In this document: positions 951 through 58,518 of the stretch, piece by piece
How positions within the stretch are numbered: position 1 is the stretch's first letter
Layout of the letters: each line of letters starts with the position of its first letter
Assembly (NCBI GenBank): GCA_034933225.1
Contig: JAYFNV010000025.1
Span: 10,457-74,456 of the forward strand
DNA from: Anaerolineaceae bacterium
Lineage (GTDB): Bacteria > Chloroflexota > Anaerolineae > Anaerolineales > Anaerolineaceae
Direction of reading: 5' to 3'
DNA length: 64,000 bases
Notes under the pieces: model-generated
What the model saw: only the letters and a program-made list of their open reading frames with translations
The model's database searches: none
Told to the model about the DNA's origin: nothing
Translations under genes and position numbers: made by a program

Positions 951-2615
951 TCATTCTATGGGATGGATCTCATAAATGCGCCAATGGGCACCTGTTTCTG
1001 TACCAGAATCCCAGACCAGGGTGGCCCAATCAGCGCCGTGTTCAAACAGAGTGGGATAAGTGACGTTAAAGATGCTCAATTGCTGCTCAGGGTCAAGCAC
1101 CAGCATGTATTTGACTGTGCCGATGGGGTTGGCCAGCACCTTGAAGAAGCCATCATCATTGGTGATGTAAAGCCGCCTGGGATATTGGGCTGCCATGATG
1201 ACAGAGAAACTGGTGGAAGAATCTACCAAGACCAGCCCGTTCTCAGAGAGTTTATCCACCTCTTTGGCTACCACGGGGGCATCGGTAAGATTCACCCAGT
1301 ACCAGTCTTTGGCGCGCAGAGCCGGCTCACTGATCGGGTCATAGACCAGCGCGGCGAGGCGCTGCTCATCTGCACCCACCGTTTTGGCGCGCATGGCCTG
1401 CAATGAGAGGGGGGTTCCCGCTAAAAACAGCCCGATCAGGGCAACATAAAAGACCAGATGCCATTTTGGCTTGAGATGTGAATAAACGATCCCGGCCATG
1501 ACCAGGGCAAAGGGAGCAGCATAGAACCAGTAACGCATCCAGTTGGCCAGGGTGCCCAAATATACCTGCAAAATGGAGAACGCCGTGACGCTGAGCATGA
1601 CGATGAAGAGGCCAAAGCCTTTGCGATCTTTGTGCCAGAAAATGGAGATCAGCGCCAGCAGTCCCATTACCGGGTAGGCAGGGTTTTGCTCAAATGAGCG
1701 GGTGAGCCCCACCCGGATGGATTCGATGATGTTGCCCCAGGCCAGATAAAGCGGATGCCCCAGACCGATGCTGCGGGCAATATCGGAGGCATTGCCCAGG
1801 CTGTAAAAGCTGCGGTAAAAGTAGAGTGGATCGCCCAAAAGGGTCCAGTTAAAGAAGATCCACATCACAATGGCGTAGACAGGCGGAGTAAGCACCGCCA
1901 GCAGCCAGCCTTCTGTGCGTGGACGCCAATCATCGCTGCCCCACATATGAACGATGATGGCTAGCGCGACGCCGGCCAGAATAGGCAGGGTCTCATAACG
2001 CACCAGGAACGCAACCGCCAGGCTCATCCCCACTAAAACCCAGGAGCGCATGGATTCAGGCATCTGGTACAGGCCCAGGAAGACGACAAGCACACAGAAC
2101 AGAAAAACGGGTTCTGCCATGCCGGAGGCAAAGAGGTAAAGCGTGTTGGGGTGGAATTGCAGCAAGACCACCAATATCCAGCGCACAGCCGGGGGGAACT
2201 TAAAGTGGGCCAACAGACGGTTGGTGAGCACGATCACGCCAGCACCAAACAGGGAAGACAAAATATTTCCGGCAAAGAACACGCTGCCCAGTGCTCTGGT
2301 GAGCGGCAATAAGGGGATCTGCAAGATGCTGGGCAAGGGTGGCCAGACAAAGCCAACTGCTGCCAGATGCGGCTCACGCGAATAGAGAACGTAGTAGGCG
2401 TTGGCCGTGCGTGAGAGCGCATCTCCATTGCCAATATGCAGCACGTAGTTCAAAAAGTAGGCGACCACCAGGTTAATGAGCAGCGAGAGCAGGAAAAGGA
2501 TCAGGCTCTCAAAGCGCTTGAGATGCACCTTTGCGTCCTGGTTGGTCAGCGCTTTGGTGGGGTGCAGTACTGCAGCCCGGGAAGAGGGGAAGAAGGATCT
2601 CGGCTTTCTGATCAT
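951..2615 (-). CDS. polytopic membrane protein, putative GT-C fold (ArnT/PMT_2-like) glycosyltransferase
   Basis: 554-aa ORF whose ATG overlaps the stop of the upstream synthase gene (ATGA at 2612-2615). Many hydrophobic helices over the first ~400 aa, then a soluble C-terminal domain. An acidic loop motif (GNGDALSR) follows the first helix. The family call rests on topology and recollection only. Confidence 0.55.
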   Translation of the reverse strand: MIRKPRSFFPSSRAAVLHPTKALTNQDAKVHLKRFESLILFLLSLLINLVVAYFLNYVLHIGNGDALSRTANAYYVLYSREPHLAAVGFVWPPLPSILQIPLLPLTRALGSVFFAGNILSSLFGAGVIVLTNRLLAHFKFPPAVRWILVVLLQFHPNTLYLFASGMAEPVFLFCVLVVFLGLYQMPESMRSWVLVGMSLAVAFLVRYETLPILAGVALAIIVHMWGSDDWRPRTEGWLLAVLTPPVYAIVMWIFFNWTLLGDPLYFYRSFYSLGNASDIARSIGLGHPLYLAWGNIIESIRVGLTRSFEQNPAYPVMGLLALISIFWHKDRKGFGLFIVMLSVTAFSILQVYLGTLANWMRYWFYAAPFALVMAGIVYSHLKPKWHLVFYVALIGLFLAGTPLSLQAMRAKTVGADEQRLAALVYDPISEPALRAKDWYWVNLTDAPVVAKEVDKLSENGLVLVDSSTSFSVIMAAQYPRRLYITNDDGFFKVLANPIGTVKYMLVLDPEQQLSIFNVTYPTLFEHGADWATLVWDSGTETGAHWRIYEIHPIE

Positions 2616-5600
2616 TTGCTCCCTCCTTTACCGGGTTCAGTGCCTTCTGATGTCCCGAATTCATTTGCGCCAGGGTCAACATCATCCGCTGAGCGCTGAT
2701 ACAGGCCGTGGCGGGTCTTCTCCCAAAAGTGCGGCTTGACGATCAACTGTACAAAGCCCTTCCAACTGGCGATACTGCTCATAGCCCAGTAGATGGGGCT
2801 GAGCAGGGCGGTGGAGACCATGCCATAATAGCCACGGCGCATGGCGCCGGCCACATTGACGTATGTGAAGACAAAGGTGCCCACATACAAACACAGCGCG
2901 CCCATGTAGAAAATAACTCCCGGGAATAGCTGCTGGATGAATGCCGGTTTGGCCAGGAACCAGATGGCCGTCATAGCCCAGTAGACCGGGTTCATCAGCG
3001 CGGTGAAGAAAGTGCCGCCCACAATGAACTGGAAGCTCATAAAGTTCCAGAAGCCGATCTCGCGGATAAGGTGCAGGGGGCGGCGCATGTGCACCAGCCA
3101 GGTCTGCATGTAGCCCTTCAACCAGCGCGAACGCTGGCGGATCCAGTTGCCGAATTGGCTGTTGGCTTCCTCATAGGTGGTGGAATCCACAATGCGAGTA
3201 CGGTAACCGCGTTTGAAGAGGCGGATGCCCAGATCGGCATCTTCGGTGACGTTGTATGGATCCCAGGCGCCGGCTTCGACAAGGGCCAGGGTCCTGAAGT
3301 GGTTGGAAGTACCTCCCAACGGTATTGGCGCGTGCTCGGCGTCCAGACCGGGCAGAAGCAGGTCGAACCACATGGAGTATTCCACGGTAAACCAGCGGGT
3401 GAGGATGTTCTGGTTGCGATTGTAATAATTGAGCTTGGCCTGAATACAGGCTACCTTTTCATCCGTCTTGTTGAATGCAATGACCACGCGTTTGAGCTGA
3501 TCGCGGTCGGGCAGATCTTCTGCATCGTAGATCACCACATAATCGCCGCGCGCGTGGATAAGCCCGTAGTTGCAAGCCTTGGGTTTGGTCTTGGGCAGTT
3601 CGTTTGGCACGATCACTTTTTGAATGAAGCGCGGCGGGTTCACCTGGTCGAACCTGGCAATGGTCTCTTCATCTTCCTCTTCCATCAGCACCAGAATATC
3701 CAGGCGGGCGGAGGGGTAATCGATGGAGGCCAAAGATTTGAGGATTTCCGGCAGCACCTCGGCCTCACGGTGCACCGGTACCAGAATGGTATAGACCGGC
3801 AAGTCGGCATCTTTTAACTGGGCCACCTCTTCTGCTGTGACCGGTACTTCCAGGTTCGTAGAGATGGCCTTAAAAATGAGGCGAAACTTGTAGATGGAAA
3901 AGACCAGATAAAAAGCGGTGACGAGCGCATTGATGATGACCAGATAAGAGTGCCAGTCAAGCACCAGCCAGACCACAGTCAGCACTGCCATCACGATGAG
4001 GCTGATGACCTGGCCGCGCACCAGCACCCGGTAAGCTGAATCTTGCGGGGTGCGCTCCAGCAGGGAGGAGATGCTTTCATTTAAATAATGACTGCGGTAA
4101 ACCTCTTCCAACACTTTCTCCAGGTCAGATTCGCTGATGAGCACCAGCTTGATGGATTTATTGAGCAGCTTTTCGGCCTGCTGAATGCCCTCCTGGTTGA
4201 GGGGGTCCACCGTGGCCAGGATCACCTGTTTGGCATCCTGGGCAAGCGGCAGCACACCCTGGGTGCGCTCAAAGGTGGGGTCAAGCAAGCGGACGGCGGC
4301 CTTATCTACCAGCGCTCTGGAAAGATCAAAGAAGGGCAGGTCTGCCTGATGGGCCAGGAACTGATACAGGGCCGTCTCTGTGATGTAGCGTTTGAAGACC
4401 AACGCCTTGCCCAGACGGATGTTCACCCTGCGGGCATAATCGAGGGCATCATTCAACTGGCTGCGTGTGATCATACCGGCCACCAACAGGGTGGTACCCA
4501 GGTTGGGTCGGCCCAGGGTGCGTTGAATGGCATCTTCCAGCGAAGCATGCGTGGTGAGCACCGGAATTACACTGGTACGCAAGATCACCTGCAGGTTGCG
4601 ACGGGCATTCTCAAAGAGCGGGTCAGAGAACGCCACCACGGTCTGATCTCCCACCTGGCGGATGGGCAGTGCTTTAAATTGGTGGGCGCTTTCCAGCGTC
4701 AACAGACGAGCCACGGCCGGATCTACCGGGTCCAGGGTACGGGTGCGCGTACGTTCAGCGCCCAGTGCATCAATGACCTGGCCTCTTTCTTCTTTAAGGG
4801 CCAGCTCTTCAAATTTAACATTCAACAGTTTGGCCATCTTCTGGCCCACTAATGTAGCCGAAAGGCCGGTGACGGCAACGACGGCCTCATCCAGCGAAAC
4901 CCCCGTCTCTTTAACGCGTTTCTGGCTAGCATACGCCTGTTTGCGTGTGCAAAGACCGGCAGCCACCAACTGATCCAGCAATTTGCCTGTTTGCTCGGCC
5001 TGGTCAACTTCAAGCGAGGCCGAGAATGTGCGCTCGATCATCTGCACAATGATGGAGTAAGGAGCCAGCACCGGCCAGATTGATTTTTTGCTCAGGGTCT
5101 CAAATTGTTTGAATCCCTCGGCCAAAAACGGGTCTGCGCTTGCCACCCATAAATTATGCTCATCTTCTAAAAGTGGAAAGAGCTTGTATTTTTGAATGGC
5201 CTCTTCAGGGATTTTTTGCAGCAGTTTTTCATCTACAAGCACGTGGTCCAGGCTGAGGGTGGGCATCCCCAACCAAAAACCGGTCGCCTCCACCAGGTCT
5301 TCTTCTGAGAGAAAACCTTTCTCCATCAGCTCGCCCACCCAGTTGGCAGATTGCTTGTTGGTCTCATCAAACTGAGCCCGGGTGATGTAGCCAAGCTGAA
5401 TGAGAACCTCCAGAAACAGCAGAGAGGTTGGATCGCTGCTGACATCTGCGGGCGGATAGATCACATCCAGCCAACGCTGCAATTCCTGTTCGTCCATCAG
5501 GCGGGGTTCCACCTGCAAATGGGTCAGCGCTGAGACAAGGTCCAGCAAGCGCAGGTCGAGTGTATCCACGCCCAGCAGCAGGGTGCCATCTTCTTCTGCG

Positions 5601-6541
5601 ATGGGCAGCAGGTGAAACTTTTGCGCCATCCAGCCAGGGAGATGATGACTGACCGGTGCGACAAATTTAGCAAAATAAGGTGGAATATCTCTGGCCAGGA
5701 GCGGCATCACCCCAATGGATCTGGAATAGACCTTCAGCCAGGCATCCGGGCTGACCAGGTTGCGCTCGAAGAGGATCTGCCGGGCTGGCAGCGCCACCTG
5801 GCGTTCCACCTGCAAAACCAGATCGCCCTGCTCGCGCGTGATCAACCGTTCGGCAACCAGCAGGTCGATCATCTCAGCGCTTGGGCGGGTGACGAGCGAA
5901 TGGCCGCGCAGGACCAGTCGCTGATAGGCCAGATTGATGAGATCTTCCTCGGCAATGATCCATTGAAATGAGTAGTGGGCATCCAGGGTAAGCAGGTCCA
6001 GCTCTTTTTGCCACCTGGGGTCATCGGTCAGCAAGAACAGGGTGGAGCCTGCCCAACCCAGCGGAATTACGTGGTCACGGGGTAACCCGGCGGGCAGCAG
6101 ATAATCCAACCCCCTGGGCGGGAAGGGATTTGCTCCGGCCAAATGGGGCAAATTGGCCAGCAATCCGTTCAATTCCAATAGGTCTCTAGCGCTCTTTTCG
6201 GTGGGGAAGAGCTTTCCGGCTACCCCCTCAGAAAGCGCAATCCCAGGCGGACCGTAAAGGCGGTCACGCAGATACTGATAATCTACCCACGAGCAGGCCA
6301 TAACCTTGATCGGCCTTCTTAGCAGAGTTTGAATTTCATTCTGCTCCTCTTCGGATAAATTGAACGGTGAAGCCAGGGTCAAACCATTGTTTTCAATGCT
6401 CAAAGGCACGGTTGAAAACTTACGGGCCACAGATTCAGGGAAAACATGCAAGACCGCTCTGGAAGGCGATATTGAATTCAAACGCAAAAATGGGGTGGAA
6501 TAATTCCAGGCTGTCATGAAACCATCTCTATTAATAAACAA
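2612..6541 (-). CDS. processive family-2 glycosyltransferase (polysaccharide synthase) with about six N-terminal T2SSE_N/MshEN-like modules
   Basis: 1309-aa ORF with a TTG start at 6541 (alternative ATG 8 codons downstream). aa ~20-817 hold repeated GspE-N-terminal-type modules. aa 843-890 form two TM helices. aa ~915-1150 form the GT2 core with PVYTILVP, YDAED, GGTSNHFR, VTEDADLG (TED) and QRSRW (QxxRW). Then come 4-5 TM helices and a ~40-aa tail. Confidence 0.8.
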   Translation of the reverse strand: MFINRDGFMTAWNYSTPFLRLNSISPSRAVLHVFPESVARKFSTVPLSIENNGLTLASPFNLSEEEQNEIQTLLRRPIKVMACSWVDYQYLRDRLYGPPGIALSEGVAGKLFPTEKSARDLLELNGLLANLPHLAGANPFPPRGLDYLLPAGLPRDHVIPLGWAGSTLFLLTDDPRWQKELDLLTLDAHYSFQWIIAEEDLINLAYQRLVLRGHSLVTRPSAEMIDLLVAERLITREQGDLVLQVERQVALPARQILFERNLVSPDAWLKVYSRSIGVMPLLARDIPPYFAKFVAPVSHHLPGWMAQKFHLLPIAEEDGTLLLGVDTLDLRLLDLVSALTHLQVEPRLMDEQELQRWLDVIYPPADVSSDPTSLLFLEVLIQLGYITRAQFDETNKQSANWVGELMEKGFLSEEDLVEATGFWLGMPTLSLDHVLVDEKLLQKIPEEAIQKYKLFPLLEDEHNLWVASADPFLAEGFKQFETLSKKSIWPVLAPYSIIVQMIERTFSASLEVDQAEQTGKLLDQLVAAGLCTRKQAYASQKRVKETGVSLDEAVVAVTGLSATLVGQKMAKLLNVKFEELALKEERGQVIDALGAERTRTRTLDPVDPAVARLLTLESAHQFKALPIRQVGDQTVVAFSDPLFENARRNLQVILRTSVIPVLTTHASLEDAIQRTLGRPNLGTTLLVAGMITRSQLNDALDYARRVNIRLGKALVFKRYITETALYQFLAHQADLPFFDLSRALVDKAAVRLLDPTFERTQGVLPLAQDAKQVILATVDPLNQEGIQQAEKLLNKSIKLVLISESDLEKVLEEVYRSHYLNESISSLLERTPQDSAYRVLVRGQVISLIVMAVLTVVWLVLDWHSYLVIINALVTAFYLVFSIYKFRLIFKAISTNLEVPVTAEEVAQLKDADLPVYTILVPVHREAEVLPEILKSLASIDYPSARLDILVLMEEEDEETIARFDQVNPPRFIQKVIVPNELPKTKPKACNYGLIHARGDYVVIYDAEDLPDRDQLKRVVIAFNKTDEKVACIQAKLNYYNRNQNILTRWFTVEYSMWFDLLLPGLDAEHAPIPLGGTSNHFRTLALVEAGAWDPYNVTEDADLGIRLFKRGYRTRIVDSTTYEEANSQFGNWIRQRSRWLKGYMQTWLVHMRRPLHLIREIGFWNFMSFQFIVGGTFFTALMNPVYWAMTAIWFLAKPAFIQQLFPGVIFYMGALCLYVGTFVFTYVNVAGAMRRGYYGMVSTALLSPIYWAMSSIASWKGFVQLIVKPHFWEKTRHGLYQRSADDVDPGANEFGTSEGTEPGKGGSK

Positions 6542-6547
6542 GGACCA

Positions 6548-6748
6548 TTAGTCTTCTTCCGAACGGTCTCGGATAGAAAAGAAGATCACCAGACCCGATA
6601 TGATGATCAGAAATATGGCGAAATAACCATTAAAGATTCCCAGGATCAGTAAAGCCCACGCAGATAGAAAAACGGCAACTTCCACAATGATTATGATCAG
6701 TTGCAGCCATTTTTTTTGCGGCCTCGGCGATTCCCCTTTATCACTCAA
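6548..6748 (-). CDS. 66-aa double-TM membrane protein (operon-embedded)
   Basis: TTG start 2 nt after the upstream stop; its own stop lies 6 nt before the synthase start. Two long hydrophobic helices (LQLIIIIVEVAVFLSAWALLILGIF / FAIFLIIISGLVIFFSI). No family recognised. Confidence 0.45.
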   Translation of the reverse strand: MSDKGESPRPQKKWLQLIIIIVEVAVFLSAWALLILGIFNGYFAIFLIIISGLVIFFSIRDRSEED

Positions 6749-6750
6749 AT

Positions 6751-7920
6751 TTACACATCCTTCTGAGAAAGAACTTTCCAGCTCATTGAAGCATAGTCTT
6801 TAAGGTCATCCCTAAAATCAACTTTGGTGAGATCCGTATTTCCCTTCAAAATAAATACCAGGCGACCATTGGCATATTCGATCAGCTTCAGGTCTGTCAC
6901 TGCCGGATTGGAAGAGATTTTGGTTTGGATCCTGGGCAGATCGGCTAGATTCTGAAATCCCAGCAGCGTGAAAAGAAATTCATCTGCGTCCAGGCCTTCC
7001 AATTGGGTGCGACCGCGGGCGGCCAACGCTTCTGCATTGCTGATGTCCGCCATCTCAATTTGCGGGCTGGGTTCTTTACGGATACTGGCAGCCGAAACAA
7101 CCGGGGTTTCAGATGCCAGGGCCAACTGCAAAGCCGCCTCACAATTAGCGATCAACTCCTCAGGGGTTACGCCGTCTTCCGGGAAGGTTGCCACTGCGAT
7201 GCGCAGATCCAACTGGGTCACCTTGGCCGCGTTTGTCAGCAAGCGGCGCGCAAACGCCACCGCGCCGGCTGCATCGGTCTCAGGCAAGATCACCCCAAAG
7301 TGGTTGCCCACAAAAGAGATGTCTACGTCATTGCGGGAGGTCTTGAGCAGCAAACGGGCAATGGCGGTATCGATCTCTTTGCGGTCATTGGTCTCAAGGT
7401 ACTCATAGGTGGCCTTTGAGGTCTCCAACATCAAGAAAGCAAAGGTTTTCTGGTAGCGCCGGCAGCGAGCCAGCTCAGTATCCAGGCGGGTGCGGGCGTG
7501 TTTCCACAGCAGCAGGCCGGTCTCAGAATCGTATTGGATCAGATCGCTCAACAATTGCAGGTCCTTGCGCATGCGAACCACATTGCGGTTGATCGCACGC
7601 ATCAACATTGAGCTCAGGCCGCCTGTCGCCCCCAAAATCAGCACAACCGTCAAAGGAGCGAACACTGATTCGATGCCAGTGTAATGAAATATGCTGAAAT
7701 AGGTGACCGCGTAAATGATGGAAGCCAACAAGGTAGAAAGAATGGCCGCAAACGGGAAGATGCGCGCAATGGAGACGATCTCGATCATCACCAACAGGGC
7801 CAACGAAAGCAAGAAGAGTTTGTGGTCCACCAATAGGATCGAACCTGTGGCAATGACGGACCAGACGGCCAAAATGGCAATATTAACGTCTTGAAAAGTA
7901 GATTGAGTAGAGTTGTTCAT
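6751..7920 (-). CDS. membrane protein with degenerate GGDEF domain (VGNHF in place of GGDEF), PelD-like receptor candidate
   Basis: Four N-terminal TM helices. A GGDEF-fold region spans aa ~128-270 (DSETGLL..., RRYQKTFAFLMLE, VGNHFGVILPETD, AVATFPEDG) and lacks the catalytic GG(D/E)EF and the upstream metal/substrate residues. An unassigned ~90-aa C-terminal domain follows. ATG lies 2 nt after the BcsB-like stop. Confidence 0.7.
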   Translation of the reverse strand: MNNSTQSTFQDVNIAILAVWSVIATGSILLVDHKLFLLSLALLVMIEIVSIARIFPFAAILSTLLASIIYAVTYFSIFHYTGIESVFAPLTVVLILGATGGLSSMLMRAINRNVVRMRKDLQLLSDLIQYDSETGLLLWKHARTRLDTELARCRRYQKTFAFLMLETSKATYEYLETNDRKEIDTAIARLLLKTSRNDVDISFVGNHFGVILPETDAAGAVAFARRLLTNAAKVTQLDLRIAVATFPEDGVTPEELIANCEAALQLALASETPVVSAASIRKEPSPQIEMADISNAEALAARGRTQLEGLDADEFLFTLLGFQNLADLPRIQTKISSNPAVTDLKLIEYANGRLVFILKGNTDLTKVDFRDDLKDYASMSWKVLSQKDV

Positions 7921-7922
7921 AG

Positions 7923-10130
7923 CTATTTCCGATTCCTTGTAAACCGGATGACCAGCAGGGCCGCCAGCGAGATGACGAAGATACCCCCCGCCAACCAGAG
8001 CACCCAGTCCGGATAAGAACCCAGTGTACCCGGGTTCGGTGCCGTTGTTGTATCTGCTTCCACGGGCTGGTCAGATACCAGCGAGGTCTTGCTGGCAATG
8101 GTCAGAAAGGCCGTCTCCTCCGCGTTGGATGCCACCACCAGATTACCGCTGAACTTTTTGTACTGATCAGGCGTGTTGACGATACTGGCCAGCCAGCTCA
8201 AACTGGTAGAAGAGGTACCGGTCAAAACCAGGCGATACGCCCCATCTTCTGTGAACAGAGATTGGATGTAGCCCAGCGAACCGGAGGCCGGTACCACCTG
8301 GGTGACCCCTGCAATGGCCCTGGGGGTCACCTTATCTGCTTCAAATGGCTGGGGCAGCAGGTCGTTCAACTGCATCACCGCATCATTCTGCGCGGGTAAC
8401 CCCACAATGATCTGGTACGAGCGCGCTGTTGATACAGCGGCCTGATCTTTGACCGAGACCACGGCCGGCAGCAGGCTGTCACCGCGAGCGGTGTGCCCAA
8501 TACGGTTGGACACCTGAAGCACCAAATTGGCCACAGGCCAATCGATCTTATCTGGCACCACAAAGGCCAGGTTGGCAAGCGTGGCCGAGCCCAGGTACAG
8601 ATTGGGGTATCCGGTGAGACTGGCCGTTTTTTGGCCGATATTGGCCGGGAAGGTGAAAGTAGAATTTGGACTGATGGTCAGCCACGAGTCTGTGTAATAT
8701 TTTTCTGTGCAGTACAAAGTGCTGGCAACAGCAGCGTTGTTCACCTGCAAATTACTGGTGATGGCAATAGAATTTTCTCCCACTTTGAAGAGCCGCAGCG
8801 GGATCTTTACTTCCACGCTGGCATCCTGGGCGTTCTGTGCATTCAAGGCAATACTGGTGACGGGAACATCGTTTACCAGGATATCCAGCGAAGAGCGATC
8901 CGGATTCAACACGCTTGAATGAGAGAAGATGAGGTTGAAAACAGCCTCGCCCTGAGAATCAAAGACCAGTTGCAGGGGCAGGGTAAGGTACGTAGATTGC
9001 TGACTGCTGCCCGTGGCCACAATATCTGCAAAGCCCAGGCTCTTGAGCGAGTAGACCAGGCTGGGGGTGGTGGTGGCCACCTCCTCTACAGCAGGGGTCT
9101 GCAAGATGATGCCCAGTTGCCCGGACAGGCGGTCAAACACTGAGGTGGTGGCGAACGCTCGGCTGGCTTTTTGCAGGCCGCTTGCGTCTACACCGGTAAC
9201 GCTAAGCAGGATGCCCGTTTCATCATAAGGGGAGGTCTGCAGCCAGAGCACACCAGAATCAGCGCCGATGGCCTTGCCAGCTTTGTCTTTGAGCTGCAAA
9301 GAAGACCCAGAGCCGCTGCTGGCCGGCAGCAAAGTAGTGCTGGCGGTGGCCAAATTGGCGGCCTGACCAATGACCAGCAGATTGCCCTCAGGCTTTTGGC
9401 TGGCCAGTTTATCTAATGAAAGCGTCTTGATCACAGGAGTGCGCCAATCAGCCCACTGACCCAACTTGGCGCTGATGGTTGCAGCAGCTTCCAACTCGGC
9501 GGCGCTGGGGTTGGCGGGCAACACCAGGGTGATGACGCTCTCCTGCAGCGGACTGGGATCAATGAAGGTGGTCGGCAGGCTGCGCAGGTCAAGCGTTTGT
9601 GCCTGGCCGCTGTATTGAACCTCAAAGGAGGTTGTGTTGTGCACCACCGCCCAGATGGCCGGGTTATCAAAGTCTTCGCAAAAGTCGTCGCGAATGCCCA
9701 TGTAGAATTGCACGTTCAACTTGTTGTATCCCGAAATGACAGACTCCGCCGGGATCTCAATTTCCAGCTTACCGCCCTCTACATTTTGCGAGCCCAACAG
9801 CCCACTGCCCACGCGGATATCGTTCCAATCTACCGACATGCTGGAGTGATTGTTGAGTGAGGCCGAGTGGCTGAAGTCAATGGTGATCTTAAGTGGCGCT
9901 TCGATCTTCCAGGTGGCCGGAAAGGTAACGCCGTACTGGTGGCTCACCAGCACCCCCTGATACTCATCATCGCTGGTTACGCCCAGGTCTTTGAGGGTAA
10001 AGGTGGCCTGGGTCCATGTTTGAGAATCCTGTGCTTTCACTCCCTGCGGAGCTGCCATCAATAAAACCAGGAGAATGAATAAGGCACTACGTACCAGGGC
10101 TAAAAAATGGGAGAGGGATGTTTTTTTCAT
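7923..10130 (-). CDS. BcsB-like secreted, C-terminally anchored synthase partner (internally duplicated)
   Basis: Signal peptide (LFILLVLLMAAPQGVKA|QD). Two homologous halves, each with the pattern L(K)xLG ... FSHS(A/S)xLN ... SS(M/L) ... ND(I/V), as in the BcsB family. Single C-terminal TM anchor (WVLWLAGGIFVISLAALLVI) plus a basic tail. Size and topology match BcsB. Confidence 0.65.
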   Translation of the reverse strand: MKKTSLSHFLALVRSALFILLVLLMAAPQGVKAQDSQTWTQATFTLKDLGVTSDDEYQGVLVSHQYGVTFPATWKIEAPLKITIDFSHSASLNNHSSMSVDWNDIRVGSGLLGSQNVEGGKLEIEIPAESVISGYNKLNVQFYMGIRDDFCEDFDNPAIWAVVHNTTSFEVQYSGQAQTLDLRSLPTTFIDPSPLQESVITLVLPANPSAAELEAAATISAKLGQWADWRTPVIKTLSLDKLASQKPEGNLLVIGQAANLATASTTLLPASSGSGSSLQLKDKAGKAIGADSGVLWLQTSPYDETGILLSVTGVDASGLQKASRAFATTSVFDRLSGQLGIILQTPAVEEVATTTPSLVYSLKSLGFADIVATGSSQQSTYLTLPLQLVFDSQGEAVFNLIFSHSSVLNPDRSSLDILVNDVPVTSIALNAQNAQDASVEVKIPLRLFKVGENSIAITSNLQVNNAAVASTLYCTEKYYTDSWLTISPNSTFTFPANIGQKTASLTGYPNLYLGSATLANLAFVVPDKIDWPVANLVLQVSNRIGHTARGDSLLPAVVSVKDQAAVSTARSYQIIVGLPAQNDAVMQLNDLLPQPFEADKVTPRAIAGVTQVVPASGSLGYIQSLFTEDGAYRLVLTGTSSTSLSWLASIVNTPDQYKKFSGNLVVASNAEETAFLTIASKTSLVSDQPVEADTTTAPNPGTLGSYPDWVLWLAGGIFVISLAALLVIRFTRNRK

Positions 10131-19628: not shown

Positions 19629-21512
19629 ATGAAGAAATCTCTACGAGCATCGCAAAAAATACTGTTTACCTTTTTGCTCCTCTTGTTTTTGGTTAGTTGT
19701 GGATCTCCCGCCTCAACCGAAGCAAATATAAATAAAACACCCACCTCAACTTTAGATAAAGACCATACAAAGATCCTGGCTACCCAAACACTTACTCAAC
19801 AAACAAACCTTTTTTACATTGAATATCCCAATCTCTGGACGAAGATTCCCGAGAACAAAATGACGTTATCTCTACAAAATATCGTCCGAGATTACGGATA
19901 TGCTCCAGATGGCAGTTATTGGGCTGTGGGAAATTTTGGCGTTTTGCACAAAGAGATCAACGGGAAAACCACCTGGTACTCAATGCTAAATGGCCTGCCA
20001 GTCAATCTCTTCGATGTTTTAGCAATTTCTCCTGAAGGGGAAATATGGGTGGGTGGTATTAACAACACAGTGTTGCGTTTTAACGGAAACGAATGGATAG
20101 ATGAGGGTTCGCACTTTCCAAATCCGACCGATCCAAGGACTGATTGGTTATGTTACTCAAAAACAATTAGAGGAATCGATTTTGACCAACAAGGCAACCC
20201 GTGGGTAATGAATTCTGGGATTGAATTGTACACAAAAGTGTACGATCAATGGATCAATTATGCATTTCCAAAAGAAATTTTACCGATAGCTGGTGGAGGA
20301 GCTTGCCCACTCGGGTTACGAGTTAATTCTTATAAGGACATCACCATCAAACGAGGTGGATGTTGCATGCAGGGCCCTCTAGCATACCATTATGATGGAA
20401 GTGCATGGTATCAAGATAATAACTATCAGGCAGTGGATGATTTGCTTGCCGAACGCCATAAGGGTGAAGCAGACCCCAACGAAAAGTATTTGTCATTACC
20501 AGTTGAAGATTTCCCTTTACCACAAGAACAGACTTTGCCTCAAGAGATATATGACGATACACAGTTCGGAATGGACGAACAGGGAGGAATTTGGTTTACA
20601 GATGGTTATTACATGTTCACCAATCAAAACGGCAAATTTGAAAATCTGAGCGATGTAAAGGGTTTCACGGCCTTCCTCCCCGATTTATCCAATAGTCAAA
20701 TTATCAACCTTAGCGGGAATGCAATTTATTATTCCTATGGGCAGCATTTTAGGATGTTGGATGACATCCTTGACGATCAAGGATTCAATGTGTATGGAAA
20801 CTATTACAAAAGTATCGATGCAAATAAGCAGTTGTGGTTATTTGCGCCACAATACGGGTTAATTAAAGTAAAGGCGGGGATTGCGGAGGTTTTACAAACG
20901 AGTCCTCCAGCCGAATTGACCGATTCTCTCACAGGTGGCACGTTGATGCTGCACGATGGCCGAATTGCCGTGGGCGCAGTAGGAGCGCTTTGGCTTTTCG
21001 ATGCCCAGGAGAATACCTGGCAAAAATTACAGCTTCAAGACCAAACCCAATTATTGACGTATCTACAGCAGGATACGGCTGGGACTATCTACGCAGCAAC
21101 AGACACTGGGGTGATAATTATCACAGGAAGTACATTCAGTTTTTATGAGTTTGAATCTTCTACTACGCTTCCAAAAATAATTACTGGTCCTTACGGAGAT
21201 AGCGATTGTTCGTTTCATAAGTATTACTTTATTGCAGATCATTGTCACGCCTTTCCTTATGCCTATTATTCTGATTTTCAGTATTCAGCTAAGTATCTGA
21301 AGGTCACTCCTGATGGGACAGTGTTTTACATTAATAACCGGATCCTTTCCACACTATCAGAAGGCAAATGGAAAAGTTACTTTTTGGATAACCTTGATAT
21401 TATTGATGCAACCGTGGATAATGATGGGGCTGTTTGGGCTTTTACAGGCACAAATGGTCTTATCCGTTTTACACCAGATATTTTTGATTATTACCAGGGT
21501 TACGAAGAATAA
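19629..21512 (+). CDS. lipoprotein with beta-propeller-type repeats (two-component-regulator-propeller-like)
   Basis: SD AAAGGGG. Lipobox LLFLVSC|GS. Repeated W/Y-rich blades (e.g. EIWVGGINNTVLRFNGNEW, GIWFTDGYYMF, AVWAFTGTNGLIRF). Noticeably AT-richer than its neighbours. Confidence 0.7.
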   Translation: MKKSLRASQKILFTFLLLLFLVSCGSPASTEANINKTPTSTLDKDHTKILATQTLTQQTNLFYIEYPNLWTKIPENKMTLSLQNIVRDYGYAPDGSYWAVGNFGVLHKEINGKTTWYSMLNGLPVNLFDVLAISPEGEIWVGGINNTVLRFNGNEWIDEGSHFPNPTDPRTDWLCYSKTIRGIDFDQQGNPWVMNSGIELYTKVYDQWINYAFPKEILPIAGGGACPLGLRVNSYKDITIKRGGCCMQGPLAYHYDGSAWYQDNNYQAVDDLLAERHKGEADPNEKYLSLPVEDFPLPQEQTLPQEIYDDTQFGMDEQGGIWFTDGYYMFTNQNGKFENLSDVKGFTAFLPDLSNSQIINLSGNAIYYSYGQHFRMLDDILDDQGFNVYGNYYKSIDANKQLWLFAPQYGLIKVKAGIAEVLQTSPPAELTDSLTGGTLMLHDGRIAVGAVGALWLFDAQENTWQKLQLQDQTQLLTYLQQDTAGTIYAATDTGVIIITGSTFSFYEFESSTTLPKIITGPYGDSDCSFHKYYFIADHCHAFPYAYYSDFQYSAKYLKVTPDGTVFYINNRILSTLSEGKWKSYFLDNLDIIDATVDNDGAVWAFTGTNGLIRFTPDIFDYYQGYEE

Positions 21513-32469: not shown

Positions 32470-35400
32470 CTAGAGCAGGGTCACTTCCAACTTCTTTACA
32501 ACTCCATCGCGTTCAAAGATGTGACGGCTGGTTTCGGCATCCAGACGATGAACTTCCAGACCATGACCTTCCACCCGCACCACTTTTCCGTCAGCAAAAT
32601 GTACCGCCACGCCCGCAGTCGCACCGCTGCGGATTAGCACCGGCACCTGGCAAATGGAATAGGCCAATGAATCGGCAGGTAGAGGCAGATCCTGCCAGGA
32701 ATCGTCGACGGCCAGATAGCGGAAAGTGGAGGGCTGCGCCAGCAGCTCAGCGCGGTTAAAGAGCAGGAAGTCGAAGACGATCTGGCCCTCTACCACGGTA
32801 AAGCCCAACTCCGCCTGGCGGGCCAAGATCTCTTCTTTGACCATGCCAGACATGCCGGGTTGCTTGGCGCCCTGACCAGCCGGGGTGTGGCTGTAGGGGT
32901 CGGTGGGGAAGGCGCCATATTCTGCAGCAGACTTTTTGAAGCACTGACCGGCGCGCACGTCGGCATAGCGCTGCATCAACCCCTCTAAAGAAGGTTCGTT
33001 TTGGGTGCGCTGTACGGTTTCCTGCACGGCCAGCAGCAGTTTGGAGATCATGTGCCAGTAGATGCTGCCCAGCCCCTCAAAGGCAAAGAAGGTGCCGGAA
33101 CGGCCGGTAAATTGCTCGTGGTGGAAGGTGGCTTCAAAGAGCGCCTCAATGGCAGCGCCCTCTTGCTCCACCAGAGCGCTAAAACGGGCATCTTGCTTAA
33201 GGGTGGCCAGCGCAGCAGCCACATCAGCGCCGTTGCGGAAGTTGCCCGCAAAATGGTAGTCACCCAGTTCATCGCGTACCAGCAGGCTGGTATTGCCTGC
33301 TTTTTGCAGGGCGTCCACCAGTTTGAATCCACTGACATGTGCAGCAGGAACCCGGTTGCGCTCTACAAACCCTTTGAGCGGACGATCCGGGTAGAGGATG
33401 TAACTATTTTGGTCAGAACGGAAGAGCGCACTGGCACGCATGGCTGTTAGCAACCGCAAAGACTCGGCGCCATTCAGCAGACCAGAAGAGAGCACCGCCA
33501 CCTGACCTTCCAACATCTCGTAAAGGTGATTGACCGTGGCTGTGCCTGGCGCCAGGCGCAGGGTGTTGTAAGAATGGTAAAGTGCATCGGCGCGGCGGTT
33601 GGCGCGCAGAGAATGATCAATATATTGCAGGGCAAGGTCCAGGAAGTTGAGGACAGCCTGTGTATCCAGATCGGCCACCTGGCCAGATAGACCCGACTTG
33701 TAGAAGTTCCAGCGGTACTCACTCCCCGCCTGACCCAGGGCGTCCATCAGGGTGCGGCGTTGGGCATCGCTAAACTGACCCACCAGCAGCGGCAATGACT
33801 CAGCCAGAAGAGCGGCAATGCGGTCAAAAAAGCTCACCACCTCGGCATGGATGGGCAGCGTTTTAGCCTCCGCCTCCGCCAGGAAGGAACGTAAAAAGAC
33901 CACATAGCGGCGCAGATAGGCCAGGGTCACAACAGAAAGACCTTTGCCCACCAGGGCGTTATTGGCGTCGTTCCATTCGGGGCGCTGGGTGGTCATCCAG
34001 ATGCCGCCTTCAGGCACCAGATTGACCAGTTTAGCCAGCAGCAGGGTGAGCGCCTTCTCGGCCAGGCTGGCATGCAAAACGCCGCCATTGGCATCCGGGA
34101 CCAGCTTGCCGTCATTGCCCAGACGGCCAACACGTTCTTTGATCTTCTTTTCCAGCTCCCAATCGAAGCTGATGGTGGTGTACGGGTTTTGCAGGATCTC
34201 ATTGTAAGGGTTGATGCGATACGGCACATCGGCATAACTGAACATGGGCTGGTTGAGTTGTGCCAGCAGTTTGCCGGGGTGGACCCTGGCGCTGATCTCC
34301 ATCAGCTTGAGCAGATAGATGATCTGATGGTCGCTCCAGTAACCGATGTTGGCCCAGGGGTCGCCGGGCACGGGGATCTCCCAATCAATGCCGTGACGAG
34401 TGACGCGGTACGGGTTGTAGCCATCCACGGTGGTGGCGTTGAGGAAGGTGAAGATCATGCTCTCCACGTATTCCGGGTATGAAGAGGAAAGTGCCTCCCA
34501 GTTCTGGAAGATATCCCGCCAGTTGCCTTCATAATCCAACTGCTGGGAGCCATCTTTCTTCTTGATGTTGATGGAGAAGCGGTTCCAGGGGCGGCTGGGG
34601 TCGCCATGACGGCGCGAGAAGGATAGCGGCAGATATGAATTGGAGAGGCGCACCAGATCTGGGCTGCCGCTGGACTGGGCCAGCGCCAGCAGTTCTTGAA
34701 TGCGCAATTGTTCTGGCAAAGCAGCAAACCAGGCTTGCTGAGAGGTCAGAACCGCACGGTTGAGCACGGTGACAAAATCAATGAAATCGGCCTTCTCCAC
34801 TTTGTACTGCGAGGGGAAGTAGCCGCCGCGCATCTCGTTGAACATGACATTGGCAAAATGGTGCGAGGTGAGCAGCGGGTTGGCCGTCACCTGCAGCCCA
34901 TCGGCTGCGGCCACGATCTTTTGCAGGGCGGCCGTATTGGCGGCCACATCTGCTTCCAGCAGGGCGATCACCTCTTTTACAGGCTTCTTGAGCAGAGCGG
35001 TTAGGTGCACCACCTGTGAGGCATCCTGGTCCACATCGGCAACGATGTGCCAGGCTTGCCCGGCAGCGGCGGCCAGGTCAAAGCAGGCATGGGCAAAATA
35101 CCCCCCGCGCTGACCGCGCGTCTCGTGCTCGGTCTTGACCAACTCACCCGACCGGAATGCGTCCAATTGAGTGTTGGTCAGCAGCCAGGCATCAGCCTTG
35201 AGCCCCACCTGCCAGGCGACCGTGGCCAGCAGACTTTCACTGGGCTCAGCCAGATCGGTGAGCGAGGAGTTGAGGGTAAAGATGCCCAGGCCGGTGGTGG
35301 GTTCCAATTCGTTGCGTTTGTAGGCATCCAGCAGCGGACTGAAGATGTTCTGGGTCTGGTCAGAAACGTTGGCAGGCAGCAGGTTTTGCAGGCCGTCCAG

Positions 35401-35937
35401 CACTTCAATGCTGCACGGAGTTTCTGCCTGGTTGTCCAGCCAACTGCTCTTGACGAAGCCAAAGGCATCCCCGCTGCGCCAGGCATAGCGGAAGGTCAGC
35501 CCCAGAGTATGGTTGACCTCTTCAAAGACCAACACATTGCCGGGAATGTTCTTGTACAGGTTTTGTTCAATGGAATACAGGCTGGCCTGCCGGCTGGAGA
35601 AAGGCTCCCACAAAGAGCGTTTCTGCCCACGGGTCACCAGCAACAGCGTGCGTGGGCCGGTGTTCTCGCTGTTCTCGGTCAGTTTATCAACGGTGTAGTA
35701 GGGGAAGAGGGCATGCGCCGCATTGATGCGTCCGGCAGAAAGGCCGCCCGTGGAGGAAATGAACATCCAGTGGTTGGAGCTGCTCACCAGGCTCATAAAG
35801 AAGGGCGGCATGGCGGGGAAATGCTGGACCTTGTAGAACGGTTCCCCCAGCAGGTGAACGTACTCTCCCTGAACGTTTTGTTTTTGGTTATGGTACAAAG
35901 TGTCAGCCACAAAAATCGAGGGAGTATTTGCGCTCAT
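32470..35937 (-). CDS. large (1155 aa) conserved-looking hypothetical protein, possibly a GH94/GH15-like (alpha/alpha)6-barrel glycan hydrolase/phosphorylase
   Basis: SD AGGAG 5 nt upstream. No TM or signal peptide. Motifs NWRDIFQNWE and RPEWNDANNAL resemble the RDxxQD and DWND motifs I associate with GH94-type barrels. Weak assignment. Confidence 0.6.
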   Translation of the reverse strand: MSANTPSIFVADTLYHNQKQNVQGEYVHLLGEPFYKVQHFPAMPPFFMSLVSSSNHWMFISSTGGLSAGRINAAHALFPYYTVDKLTENSENTGPRTLLLVTRGQKRSLWEPFSSRQASLYSIEQNLYKNIPGNVLVFEEVNHTLGLTFRYAWRSGDAFGFVKSSWLDNQAETPCSIEVLDGLQNLLPANVSDQTQNIFSPLLDAYKRNELEPTTGLGIFTLNSSLTDLAEPSESLLATVAWQVGLKADAWLLTNTQLDAFRSGELVKTEHETRGQRGGYFAHACFDLAAAAGQAWHIVADVDQDASQVVHLTALLKKPVKEVIALLEADVAANTAALQKIVAAADGLQVTANPLLTSHHFANVMFNEMRGGYFPSQYKVEKADFIDFVTVLNRAVLTSQQAWFAALPEQLRIQELLALAQSSGSPDLVRLSNSYLPLSFSRRHGDPSRPWNRFSINIKKKDGSQQLDYEGNWRDIFQNWEALSSSYPEYVESMIFTFLNATTVDGYNPYRVTRHGIDWEIPVPGDPWANIGYWSDHQIIYLLKLMEISARVHPGKLLAQLNQPMFSYADVPYRINPYNEILQNPYTTISFDWELEKKIKERVGRLGNDGKLVPDANGGVLHASLAEKALTLLLAKLVNLVPEGGIWMTTQRPEWNDANNALVGKGLSVVTLAYLRRYVVFLRSFLAEAEAKTLPIHAEVVSFFDRIAALLAESLPLLVGQFSDAQRRTLMDALGQAGSEYRWNFYKSGLSGQVADLDTQAVLNFLDLALQYIDHSLRANRRADALYHSYNTLRLAPGTATVNHLYEMLEGQVAVLSSGLLNGAESLRLLTAMRASALFRSDQNSYILYPDRPLKGFVERNRVPAAHVSGFKLVDALQKAGNTSLLVRDELGDYHFAGNFRNGADVAAALATLKQDARFSALVEQEGAAIEALFEATFHHEQFTGRSGTFFAFEGLGSIYWHMISKLLLAVQETVQRTQNEPSLEGLMQRYADVRAGQCFKKSAAEYGAFPTDPYSHTPAGQGAKQPGMSGMVKEEILARQAELGFTVVEGQIVFDFLLFNRAELLAQPSTFRYLAVDDSWQDLPLPADSLAYSICQVPVLIRSGATAGVAVHFADGKVVRVEGHGLEVHRLDAETSRHIFERDGVVKKLEVTLL

Positions 35938-57969: not shown

Positions 57970-58518
57970 CTAATGGGAGAGTGGGATTTCAAGAGACATC
58001 TCGGCAGATGTATAAACCAGGCTCAGATCGCCTTTTACAGCTTCTGCTGGGATCTCAAAGCAAATGAATCCCTTGTTCGTTCCCAGGGTGAGATTTGTGG
58101 ATTTCAACCTGGGGAAATTGTAGTTTTGCAAAAACGTATCATTTTCCATGCGGGTATAGGAATTCCCAGAACCATCTTTTACTGATAAGTTCTTCCAGGC
58201 GAAGGTGGATGCGCCAGCTACCTGTTTGGTGACTGTTAATTCCACCAACAGAAACATGTCCCCATCCGCAGGTTTTTCAACAAATTGTATCTGGGTAACA
58301 TCTCCGTTATATTGTTGCGCCGCCTCTGAACCGCTCAAATCTTTCACTGCTTCAGACTTTGTTACCTCAACTGACCAGGGAAATTGAGATTGGTCAATTG
58401 CGGTGGGGGCTGTTGTTGTGGAAGGTTTTCCCTGGCAAGCGGCGATTATGACACATCCAAAAAAGAAAATTGTTACAAAAAACAAACCTGGCTTATTGCG
58501 TGACATTATATTTTGCAT
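57970..58518 (-). CDS. lipoprotein, DUF4352-like beta-sandwich
   Basis: Lipobox VIIAAC|QG. The GDMFLLVELTVTKQ pattern matches my recollection of DUF4352. The start may instead be the ATG at 58506. Confidence 0.55.
   Translation of the reverse strand: MQNIMSRNKPGLFFVTIFFFGCVIIAACQGKPSTTTAPTAIDQSQFPWSVEVTKSEAVKDLSGSEAAQQYNGDVTQIQFVEKPADGDMFLLVELTVTKQVAGASTFAWKNLSVKDGSGNSYTRMENDTFLQNYNFPRLKSTNLTLGTNKGFICFEIPAEAVKGDLSLVYTSAEMSLEIPLSH

Follow-up and report, generated by a model that had tools for sequence, protein, structure and literature searches.

Six tandem MshEN-type units on a putative exopolysaccharide synthase of an Anaerolineaceae bacterium, with a single candidate c-di-GMP site next to the membrane

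Overview of the locus

In this work, we describe a synthase gene located within a 64,000-nucleotide stretch of contig JAYFNV010000025.1 of an Anaerolineaceae bacterium of the phylum Chloroflexota (GenBank assembly GCA_034933225.1, positions 10,457 to 74,456 of the forward strand; the whole stretch is further referred to as the window). It is the fourth gene of an operon encoded on the minus strand, whose products are, in order, a BcsB-like subunit, a membrane protein with a degenerate GGDEF domain, a mini-protein, the synthase, and a GT-C-like membrane protein. The synthase is built of six mutually homologous units of the MshEN type, followed by a processive glycosyltransferase of family 2 (GT2) resembling BcsA and the hyaluronan synthases (HAS), and this six-unit array is real, coherent and conserved. 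As had been proposed in an earlier note on this DNA, only the membrane-proximal unit (unit 6) keeps a recognizable site for c-di-GMP (cyclic dimeric guanosine monophosphate), which is supported by the single hit of a curated motif model, by the constraint on its residues, by the match of an AlphaFold2 (AF2) model found with Foldseek, and by the comparison of the family. The domain composition, the homology of the six units, the exclusive and strongly conserved motif of unit 6, its MshE-like predicted fold and the conserved operon are established by the analyses presented below. The coordinates of all features are gathered in Table 1.

Residues are numbered throughout from the TTG start codon, following the numbering of the earlier note. 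All eight peptide strings quoted there were found in the translation of the gene at the positions given; the start itself is probably the ATG at 6517 (M9), since the copy of the protein deposited at NCBI (P0001, labelled "glycosyltransferase [Anaerolineaceae bacterium]", 1301 amino acids (aa)) begins there, and the homolog P0002, which is 59% identical over the whole protein, also aligns from M9.

Table 1. Features of the synthase gene, its product and the adjacent genes of the operon
Feature	Position	Strand	Residues or length	Description and evidence
MshEN(x6)-GT2 synthase gene	2612..6541	-	1309 aa	Counted from TTG; open reading frame list; Pfam MshEN, Glyco_trans_2_3, Glyco_tranf_2_3, Glycos_transf_2
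Unit 1	6242..6541	-	aa 1-100	Restricted to the C subdomain (alpha/beta, N1E-like); PF05157 38.9 bits at aa 14-99; hhalign vs. unit 6 C subdomain 99.2%
Unit 2	5897..6241	-	aa 101-215	One-helix remnant (aa 118-129) and diverged C subdomain (aa 155-211); PF05157 18.4 bits; hhalign vs. unit 6 99.0%
Unit 3	5447..5896	-	aa 216-365	Four-helix N subdomain, extra helix, C subdomain; PF05157 36.2 bits at aa 305-365; hhalign 99.8%, 137 columns
Unit 4	5006..5446	-	aa 366-512	Shortened four-helix N subdomain and C subdomain; PF05157 53.6 bits at aa 424-509; hhalign 99.8%
Unit 5	4514..5005	-	aa 513-676	N subdomain with four helices, beta hairpin insertion (aa 583-603), C subdomain; PF05157 38.1 bits at aa 604-677; hhalign 99.7%
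Unit 6	4052..4513	-	aa 677-830	Complete MshEN domain, candidate c-di-GMP sensor; PF05157 64.7 bits at aa 734-817
Motif I	4433..4504	-	aa 680-703	NLGTTLLVAGMITRSQLNDALDYA; position 1 R->N, position 24 Q->A; HMMER alignment to MshE
Spacer RRVNI	4418..4432	-	aa 704-708	Matches the published 24+5+24 spacing
Motif II	4346..4417	-	aa 709-732	RLGKALVFKRYITETALYQFLAHQ; position 10 G->R
Linker helix	4028..4096	-	aa 816-838	..LLERTPQDSAYR; joins unit 6 to the first transmembrane helix
Transmembrane processive GT2 synthase	2702..4018	-	aa 842-1280	Pfam, motif positions, phmmer, Foldseek
BcsB-like subunit	7923..10130	-	735 aa	First gene of the operon; PF03170 193.7 bits; conserved upstream in L001, L003, L005, L006
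Membrane protein with degenerate GGDEF domain	6751..7920	-	389 aa	PF00990 27.5 bits; orthologs in L001, L003, L005, L006, L008
Mini-protein	6548..6748	-	66 aa	TTG start; translation; homolog at L001 4290-4490
GT-C-like polytopic membrane protein	951..2615	-	554 aa	NF047440 (LA_3751/LA_3752 family) 29.8 bits, below the 200-bit cut-off

Domain composition of the MshEN array

At first, the whole synthase was compared with the Pfam collection. PF05157 (MshEN, formerly T2SSE_N) matched with 209.9 bits (E-value 3.9e-63) in five stretches, and three overlapping GT2 families were found at aa ~917-1196. It should be stressed that the PF05157 model is confined to the alpha/beta C subdomain (its match in unit 6 begins at aa 734, directly after the motif), while the ligand site of MshEN is placed in the four-helix N subdomain that precedes it. 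When the six proposed pieces were scanned separately, five of them scored above the gathering cut-off of 23.1 bits and unit 2 below it. The sixth unit was recovered in profile-profile comparisons (hhalign), for which the unit profiles were cut from a family alignment of 24 sequences. Units 3, 4 and 5 aligned with unit 6 with probabilities of 99.7-99.8% over 135-137 columns, i.e., over the whole domain, and units 1 and 2 aligned with its C-terminal half (99.0-99.2%). All pairs of units are homologous by this comparison, therefore there are six units and the weak unit 2 is genuine. The division into six MshEN/T2SSE_N-type modules, put forward in the earlier note together with the suggestion of parsing by domain profiles, is thus upheld: the repeats are of the PF05157 type, units 1 and 3-6 by their own scores and unit 2 by hhalign. 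Since the pairwise identity between the units is only ~20-26%, the duplications must be old.

An AF2 model of aa 110-1309 (units 2-6 and the synthase domain), based on 78 aligned sequences, reached a mean predicted local distance difference test (pLDDT) score of 92.2 and a predicted template modelling (pTM) score of 0.71. In this model, each of units 3-6 consists of four helices followed by a C subdomain with the helix (H) and strand (E) order H-H-E-E-H-E-H, and the C subdomain of unit 2 has the order E-E-H-E-H, like the other units. The four-helix N subdomain is thus present in units 3-6; unit 2 has one helix of it and unit 1, judged by Pfam and hhalign, has none.

The ligand-binding residues have been lost from units 1-5, none of which scores more than 6 of the 14 key positions of the site. 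In unit 3 the motif is gone (EMI.. and PAR.. stand where RLG is expected; 2/14), in unit 4 the spacer is shortened and a WVG..G..L trace of motif II remains (6/14), and in unit 5 KLL.. and SLD.. replace RLG (4/14). The third-position glycine (Gly3) is absent from both halves of the site in units 3 and 5, and unit 4 has it in motif II only. The earlier claim that units 1-5 lack the RLG and Q positions stands as regards the ligand residues, but it understated the loss in units 1 and 2, which lack most of the four-helix subdomain as well.

The candidate c-di-GMP site of unit 6

In the published MshEN site, a spacer of 5 residues separates two motifs of 24 residues each (PMC5013675). The 24+5+24 spacing is reproduced exactly in unit 6, and 12 of its 14 key positions are compatible. 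The earlier note, which used a single 24-residue motif, located R709-Q732 (nt 4346-4417) correctly; this segment is motif II of a two-part site, and the "first-half motif" described before it is motif I, N680-A703, within which LLVAGMITRSQLNDAL occupies aa 685-700. The exchange of glycine for arginine (R718) was regarded there as the sole deviation, which did not hold, because motif I deviates too, at its first position (R->N) and at its last one (Q->A).

The published motif patterns in their strict, (R/K/L)-extended and relaxed versions gave no match in the synthase, and in its relatives they mostly hit the proximal unit. The relaxed pattern reads [RKPN]hGxxhhxx[GAS]hhxxxxhxxxhxx[QNKRYWST] (PMC5013675). 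Scoring based on hidden Markov models (HMMs) and on alignment columns was adopted after these patterns had failed to match. Our own HMM of the N subdomain, trained on proximal units, favours units of that kind, and the NCBIfam model NF053729 (c-di-GMP_motif, 53 residues, cut-off 38 bits) served as an independent check. This model matched the synthase in one stretch only, aa 681-732, with 69.1 bits (E-value 2e-19). A sub-threshold remnant was seen in unit 4 (20.6 bits, E-value 2.8e-4), and no match was obtained for units 1, 2, 3 and 5 scanned separately.

Unit 6 could be aligned with MshE of the 5HTL structure (phmmer, E-value 8.3e-13) and with all three GSPII domains of PilF, the latter protein (6F8L) being its top sequence match in the Protein Data Bank (PDB) (E-value 2.8e-22, three stretches). 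A separate AF2 model of unit 6 (pLDDT 92.2) found c-di-GMP-bound MshE (5HTL_B) as its best Foldseek match, with an E-value of 1.8e-11, a template modelling (TM) score of 0.81 and a root mean square deviation (rmsd) of 2.6 A, and c-di-GMP-bound GSPII-B of PilF as the second one. The agreement with 5HTL_B was even closer for unit 6 taken from the 1200-residue model (TM score 0.86, rmsd 2.2 A). The superposition on ligand-bound MshE, which the earlier note had suggested as a check, thus speaks for its reading of this unit.

Unit 6 keeps every residue whose mutation was reported to do the most damage, i.e., both Gly3 positions and all six Leu-type positions of the hydrophobic cluster. In MshE, the backbone amides of Gly3 bind guanine and the G11L and G40I variants lose binding, while each mutant of the Leu cluster shows a more than 10-fold loss of affinity (PMC5013675). 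Earlier variants of MshE Arg9, Asp12 and Gln32 changed the affinity no more than fivefold, as summarized by Wang et al. (PMC5013675), and in GSPII-B of PilF the arginine at position 1 is dispensable (PMC11731258, PMC12002112). Moreover, the nearly invariant D779 aligns with MshE D108, the aspartate of the C subdomain that contacts guanine. The glycine replaced by R718 has a structural role in a turn, and the AF2 model keeps that turn at high confidence despite the replacement. Judged by these residues and by the predicted fold, unit 6 likely binds c-di-GMP, with an affinity that is probably lower than that of canonical MshEN domains, because the glutamine of motif I is replaced by alanine and the first arginine by asparagine.

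Distribution and conservation of the array

When the protein or the alignment of 24 sequences was used as the query, word-indexed searches for homologs yielded only P0001-P0003, and the family surfaced in an exhaustive search of cluster representatives, which revealed 16,577 relatives among 1.84 billion representatives. Approximately 25 clusters (at 50% identity) comprise proteins of 1220-1345 aa with six C subdomains at corresponding positions. Many other relatives are of ~610-650 aa and align from aa ~680 of the query onwards, i.e., they consist of one MshEN unit and the GT2 domain. The named six-unit members are annotated just as "glycosyltransferase" or "hypothetical protein", and they originate from metagenome-assembled genomes (MAGs) of Chloroflexota (Anaerolineaceae, Ardenticatenia, Dehalococcoidia, and "Chloroflexi bacterium") and from one MAG labelled Sphingomonadaceae. 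Among GTDB species representatives, the loci of Chloroflexota encode 4-6 units, those of Actinomycetota (Solirubrobacterales, Nocardioides) 2-3, and those of most other phyla one.

Conservation within the family climbs towards the membrane. The mean identity to the query is 14-24% for units 1-4, 37% for the C subdomain of unit 5, 45% for the N subdomain of unit 6, 48% for the linker helix and 60% for the GT2 domain, and the N subdomain of unit 6 is 79% identical to that of P0002, compared with the 59% of the whole protein. The site of unit 6 is the most constrained part of the array: within aa 1-830, the sole residues invariant in 24 long homologs are P132, P641, G682, L685, R709 and Q732, four of which belong to this site, and L696, A699, G711, A713, L714, D779 and P780 are nearly invariant. 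The three deviations of unit 6 (N680, A703, and R718) are recurrent variants of the family. Across 72 proximal units, position 1 of motif I is R in 41% and N in 23%, its position 24 shows Q (47%), A (29%), H (13%) and S (8%), and position 10 of motif II is G in 69% and R in 11%.

The proximal unit retains 10-14 of the 14 key positions in all 24 long homologs, and the distal units retain at most 9, except in P0004 (units 2 and 4), P0010 (unit 2) and P0015 (unit 4, with 14 of 14). The NF053729 model recognized four stretches in P0004, three in P0010, two each in P0012 and P0036, and one each in P0005, P0006, P0017 and the query, and the strongest stretch was always placed in the proximal unit. 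Good motifs in unit 2 and/or unit 4 in addition to unit 6 are thus present in some six-unit relatives, i.e., P0004 (of the Ardenticatenia type), P0010, P0015 and L004. As these relatives have intact distal motifs, the ancestral units were full sensors, in line with the description of units 1-5 as decayed copies in the earlier note. As far as motif scores can tell, the decay of the distal sites is lineage-specific, and the proximal site is universally kept.

A different form of multiplication was observed in Clostridial and Paenibacillus relatives, in which two or three near-canonical (RLG...Q) four-helix MshEN_N modules precede a single C subdomain. This expansion was seen in L030 (Clostridium drakei; N modules at aa 11-60, 67-116 and 126-177), L025, L031, L035, L039 and L022-L027 (Paenibacillus), the synthase open reading frame being placed at ~8001 of each locus. 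The multiplication of the N module in these firmicutes would permit binding of two or three c-di-GMP molecules per chain.

The synthase domain and the linker helix

The GT2 domain carries the signatures DAED (aa 1006-1009), TED (aa 1099-1101) and QRSRW (aa 1136-1140). It is similar to BcsA in sequence (4HG6/4P00, phmmer E-value 3e-15), and its predicted fold resembles those of BcsA, hyaluronan synthases and chitin synthases (Foldseek, E-value ~5e-14). By its signatures and predicted fold, this domain is most likely a processive synthase. An alternative role, the synthesis of a polyprenyl-phosphate sugar that would feed the GT-C-like neighbor in the manner of ArnC/ArnT, is less likely, given the QRSRW and TED motifs, the multiple C-terminal transmembrane helices and the BcsA/HAS fold.

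The assignment to BcsA or NfrB was rejected, as the equivalog scores reached about a tenth of the cut-offs or less; over the NCBIfam equivalog models of CelA/BcsA, PgaC, NodC and NfrB together, the scores were about a sixth of the cut-offs or less. In the case of CelA/BcsA, TIGR03030 scored 68.9 bits (cut-off 699) and NF008558 scored 50.2 bits (cut-off 992). The synthase is not an ortholog of NfrB either, because NF008411 reached 83.2 bits against a cut-off of 1170, and the best of its two stretches covers only the MshEN region, aa 679-831.

Unit 6 and the membrane are connected by a helix that contains the sequence ..S-LLERTPQDSA.. and is helical in both AF2 models. Its residues L827, P832, S835 and A836 are invariant in the 24 long homologs, and the leucine and the proline are invariant also in 35 sequences that are mostly shorter relatives. 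With its mean identity, the linker exceeds every MshEN unit and is below the GT2 region alone. It is a likely candidate for the element of allosteric signal transmission.

The operon and other genes of the window

The same order of genes was found in the contig encoding P0002 (L001), and it is largely kept in L003 and L005. The product of the first gene is a BcsB-family protein rather than a BcsB ortholog, since every BcsB equivalog score in NCBIfam is far below the cut-off.

The polytopic protein encoded by the second gene has VGNHF in place of the GG(D/E)EF signature (GRHF, GEKY, GERI and similar in its orthologs). At the location of the I-site it has a conserved R..D, which takes the form RxxD in L003, L006 and L008 and RxD/RxxxD here, and its C-terminal domain of ~110 aa is common only to L001 and L005. 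It resembles receptors of the PssE/YdaK type from operons with a GT2 and a BcsB-like protein, so it may serve as an adaptor or as another entry point for c-di-GMP.

The mini-protein, whose open reading frame looks unannotated, has two hydrophobic stretches that resemble transmembrane segments (judged by eye, with no predictor), and most of its positions are identical, again by eye, to those of the 66-aa gene product of L001; the mini-protein therefore probably represents a true small subunit of this system. The gene of the GT-C-like protein overlaps the stop codon of the synthase gene by 4 nt. It is the most widely conserved neighbor, located directly downstream in most loci of Chloroflexota, Actinomycetota and Bacillota, and in P0003 its product is fused to the GT2 synthase. 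Possible roles of the GT-C-like protein are modification of the polymer or the use of a lipid-linked sugar.

In the 64-kb window, no c-di-GMP riboswitch or other Rfam family was found. Elsewhere in the window, two large open reading frames, 19629..21512 (+; 627 aa) and 32470..35937 (-; 1155 aa), matched nothing in Pfam at E <= 1e-5, and the former lies in a segment of low G+C content (0.42 vs. ~0.55 elsewhere). Two adjacent paralogous arylsulfotransferase genes (ASST, PF05935), located at 55868..57961 (-) and 58493..60217 (-), also have a lower G+C content (0.44-0.49).

Proposed mechanism and alternative explanations

We propose that the synthase provides the catalytic subunit for exopolysaccharide production of the synthase-dependent type in the Anaerolineaceae bacterium, in which a membrane-embedded BcsA/HAS-type GT2 would work with the BcsB-like and GT-C-like partners and would be regulated via its cytoplasmic N-terminus. 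Unit 6 would bind a single molecule of c-di-GMP through its 24+5+24 site, and the signal would run through the linker helix to the glycosyltransferase, by analogy to NfrB's MshEN domain and BcsA's PilZ domain. Units 1-5 would be descendants of full sensors whose ligand residues were lost, with units 3-5 keeping the fold and units 1-2 only the C subdomain, and they would most likely act as a structural or protein-docking extension. We infer the binding of c-di-GMP, the allosteric activation and the scaffold or docking role from the conserved motif, the predicted fold and known systems. The docking role is suggested by three facts: the C subdomain is a protein-interaction module of the GspE N1 type, which holds GspL; the non-binding MshEN folds of Xanthomonas PilB hold PilZ (Foldseek matches 2BH1, 4PHT, and 7LKM); and NfrB operates in a complex with a specific cyclase (PMC8669469). 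Switching by c-di-GMP is consistent with the equipment of the phylum: according to PMC5013675 (Supplementary Table 5), Chloroflexi such as Anaerolinea encode many enzymes that make or degrade c-di-GMP (GGDEF, EAL and HD-GYP proteins), PilZ is absent from them, and the sole protein receptor known there is MshEN. An exopolysaccharide synthase switched by c-di-GMP at unit 6, with units 1-5 as a structural or docking extension, is in our opinion the probable explanation of this gene.

A bolder version of this proposal, which we consider rather unlikely, is that the array is no floppy chain of dead domains but forms an ordered cytoplasmic superstructure that serves as an evolvable rheostat and docking platform, in which the number of live sites would set the activation threshold and cooperativity and the decayed units would recruit partners. 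An ordered arrangement is hinted at by the model of aa 110-1309, as its pLDDT of 92 and pTM of 0.71 are high for a 1200-residue chain with six domains. The number of live sites would be one here and 2-4 in P0004, P0010, P0012, P0015 and P0036, and firmicute relatives have three intact N modules. If this were true, the recruits could be the degenerate-GGDEF protein, diguanylate cyclases or neighboring synthases, and the purpose would be local signalling or the arraying of synthases in filamentous Chloroflexota.

The most serious objection to the proposed switching is that unit 6 may be dead as well, so that the whole array would be an interaction or assembly scaffold and c-di-GMP would enter through another component, e.g., the degenerate-GGDEF protein, in the manner of PssE or PelD. 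Several points weigh in this direction and thus against the role that we assign to unit 6. In its motif I both the arginine and the glutamine are missing (N680 and A703 stand there), and R718 takes the place of the turn glycine in motif II; neither half fits the relaxed pattern, which allows [QNKRYWST] at the position of A703 and [GAS] at that of R718. The motif glutamines make four hydrogen bonds to the ligand backbone, and in GSPII-B of PilF the Q190E exchange lowers the affinity (dissociation constant ~500 nM) and a double Gln mutant does not bind at all (PMC11731258, PMC12002112). GSPII-A of PilF, whose one departure from the consensus in motif I is H for Q, is a non-binder and stayed one when its motifs were repaired (PMC12002112), therefore sequence cannot guarantee binding. 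Furthermore, the N-domains of XpsE and of Xanthomonas PilB (matches 7LKM and 2BH1) are non-binding MshEN folds used for partner binding. Finally, the combination of a BcsB-like protein, a transmembrane degenerate-GGDEF protein and a GT2 mirrors Listeria pssC-D-E, where the receptor is the GGDEF protein, and this makes the neighboring protein an alternative or additional receptor candidate. A dead unit 6 is, however, hard to reconcile with the conservation of its 53-residue segment, which is higher than elsewhere in the array and includes four of the six residues invariant across the 830-aa N-terminal region. The NF053729 score exceeds the curated cut-off by 31 bits, the residues of the hydrophobic cluster and both Gly3 are intact, and the I-site of the GGDEF-like neighbor is irregular, reading RxD/RxxxD and not RxxD when anchored on the signature. 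We therefore regard this alternative as possible but unlikely.

Considerably less probable is control by several sites, in which c-di-GMP or another nucleotide would also be bound, through non-canonical residues, by at least one distal unit (most of all unit 4), resulting in cooperative or graded control. The NF053729 remnant and the WVG..G..L trace of unit 4 would agree with it, as would the 2-4 good motifs of P0004, P0010, P0012, P0015 and P0036, the near-canonical MshEN_N modules of the Clostridial and Paenibacillus relatives, and the ability of MshEN to bind also cyclic GMP-AMP (cGAMP), mentioned in a passage of PMC5013675. Nevertheless, at no more than 6 of 14 key positions, units 1-5 of this synthase are far from such a site: Gly3 is missing from units 3 and 5 and halved in unit 4, where the spacer is shortened as well, changes of the G11L/G40I type abolish binding in MshE, and units 1-2 do not have the four-helix bundle.

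The last explanation, that the long N-terminal array is an artefact of assembly or annotation (a chimeric contig or fused open reading frames), could be considered as the source is a metagenome-assembled genome, but it is effectively refuted by the uninterrupted 3.9-kb open reading frame, by the ~25 clusters that agree in length and in the order of units although their assemblies and sources are independent, and by the same operon in L001, L003 and L005.

Significance of the array

In agreement with the statement of the earlier note that multi-copy MshEN arrays on a GT2 are not characterized, the literature consulted contained no such array on a glycosyltransferase and no study of the six-unit Chloroflexota family; single MshEN-GT2 proteins (among them NfrB, which has been studied experimentally) and tandem arrays with dead copies on ATPases were found. 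As the MshEN-GT2 fusion, tandem MshEN arrays and mixtures of live and dead copies are already known, the advance is incremental and brings no conceptual surprise. The synthase gene would nevertheless provide Chloroflexota c-di-GMP signalling with a concrete output, namely a synthase resembling BcsA but switched by MshEN at its N-terminus instead of by PilZ.

Moreover, the family constitutes a natural series of synthases with 1, 2, 3 and 6 units and with 1-4 live sites, supplemented by the firmicute forms that multiply the nucleotide-binding half only. This series is suited to the questions of what non-binding MshEN copies do (cf. GSPII-A of PilF) and how many sites a synthase needs. If unit 6 binds, the family-typical Q->A and G->R replacements would widen the sequence rules used for predicting c-di-GMP binding.

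Comparison with known systems

The closest functional parallel is NfrB of Escherichia coli, which similarly combines a membrane GT2 synthase with an MshEN module in one polypeptide, and whose NF008411 model aligns to unit 6. [quoted passage not shown] In both proteins the MshEN domain is fused to a GT2 catalytic domain (DxD...QxxRW), but the domain order is reversed: in NfrB the module is single and C-terminal, and here it is N-terminal and six-fold. The partners differ too, being NfrA and YbcH in the case of NfrB and the BcsB-like and GT-C-like proteins in this operon. It is plausible that the synthase works like NfrB, although it is not a member of the NfrB family.

The same domain order as here is present in the "MshEN - Glyco_trans_2_3" architecture exemplified by Rsph17029_0522 of Rhodobacter sphaeroides (PMC5013675 Supplementary Table 4). 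That architecture has one unit in contrast to the six found here, and it was catalogued there but not characterized; there is no (MshEN)n-GT2 entry among the architectures listed in the same work (PMC5013675). The part of the query from aa ~680 to ~1280 aligns end to end with single-unit proteins of ~610-650 aa from Bacillota, Actinomycetota, Pseudomonadota, Bacteroidota and Cyanobacteria.

Regarding the tandem arrangement, a counterpart is PilF of Thermus thermophilus with its units GSPII-A, GSPII-B and GSPII-C, of which the N-terminal one is dead (PMC11731258, PMC12002112). Live and dead sites are thus combined there too, and, as in this synthase, it is the copy most distant from the output domain that is dead. 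The output of PilF and of the other (MshEN)2-4-T2SSE proteins is, in contrast, a hexameric secretion or pilus ATPase, the copies number three or four at most, and two of three sites are live in PilF versus one of six here. This synthase has six tandem units, one of which bears the motif, and the motif losses of units 1-5 suggest that they do not bind. The T2SSE ATPase domain gave no match in the synthase, and the PilB and GspE models align only by their N-terminal ~140 positions.

With the BcsA-BcsB system the synthase shares the processive GT2 fold, the D,DxD/TED/QxxRW signatures, a BcsB-family partner encoded in the operon and the presumed control by c-di-GMP. In contrast to BcsA, it has an N-terminal MshEN region as the regulatory module and an extra GT-C-like partner, and no PilZ family occurs among its Pfam and NCBIfam matches at E <= 0.1. 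Operons that combine a GT2 synthase, a BcsB-like protein and a degenerate-GGDEF protein include pssA-E of Listeria and ydaJKLMN of Bacillus. In Listeria, the receptor of c-di-GMP is PssE, a degenerate-GGDEF protein that uses its I-site (PMC4125290). The Listeria synthase has no MshEN domain, whereas in the operon described here MshEN is placed on the synthase itself and the I-site of the GGDEF protein is irregular.

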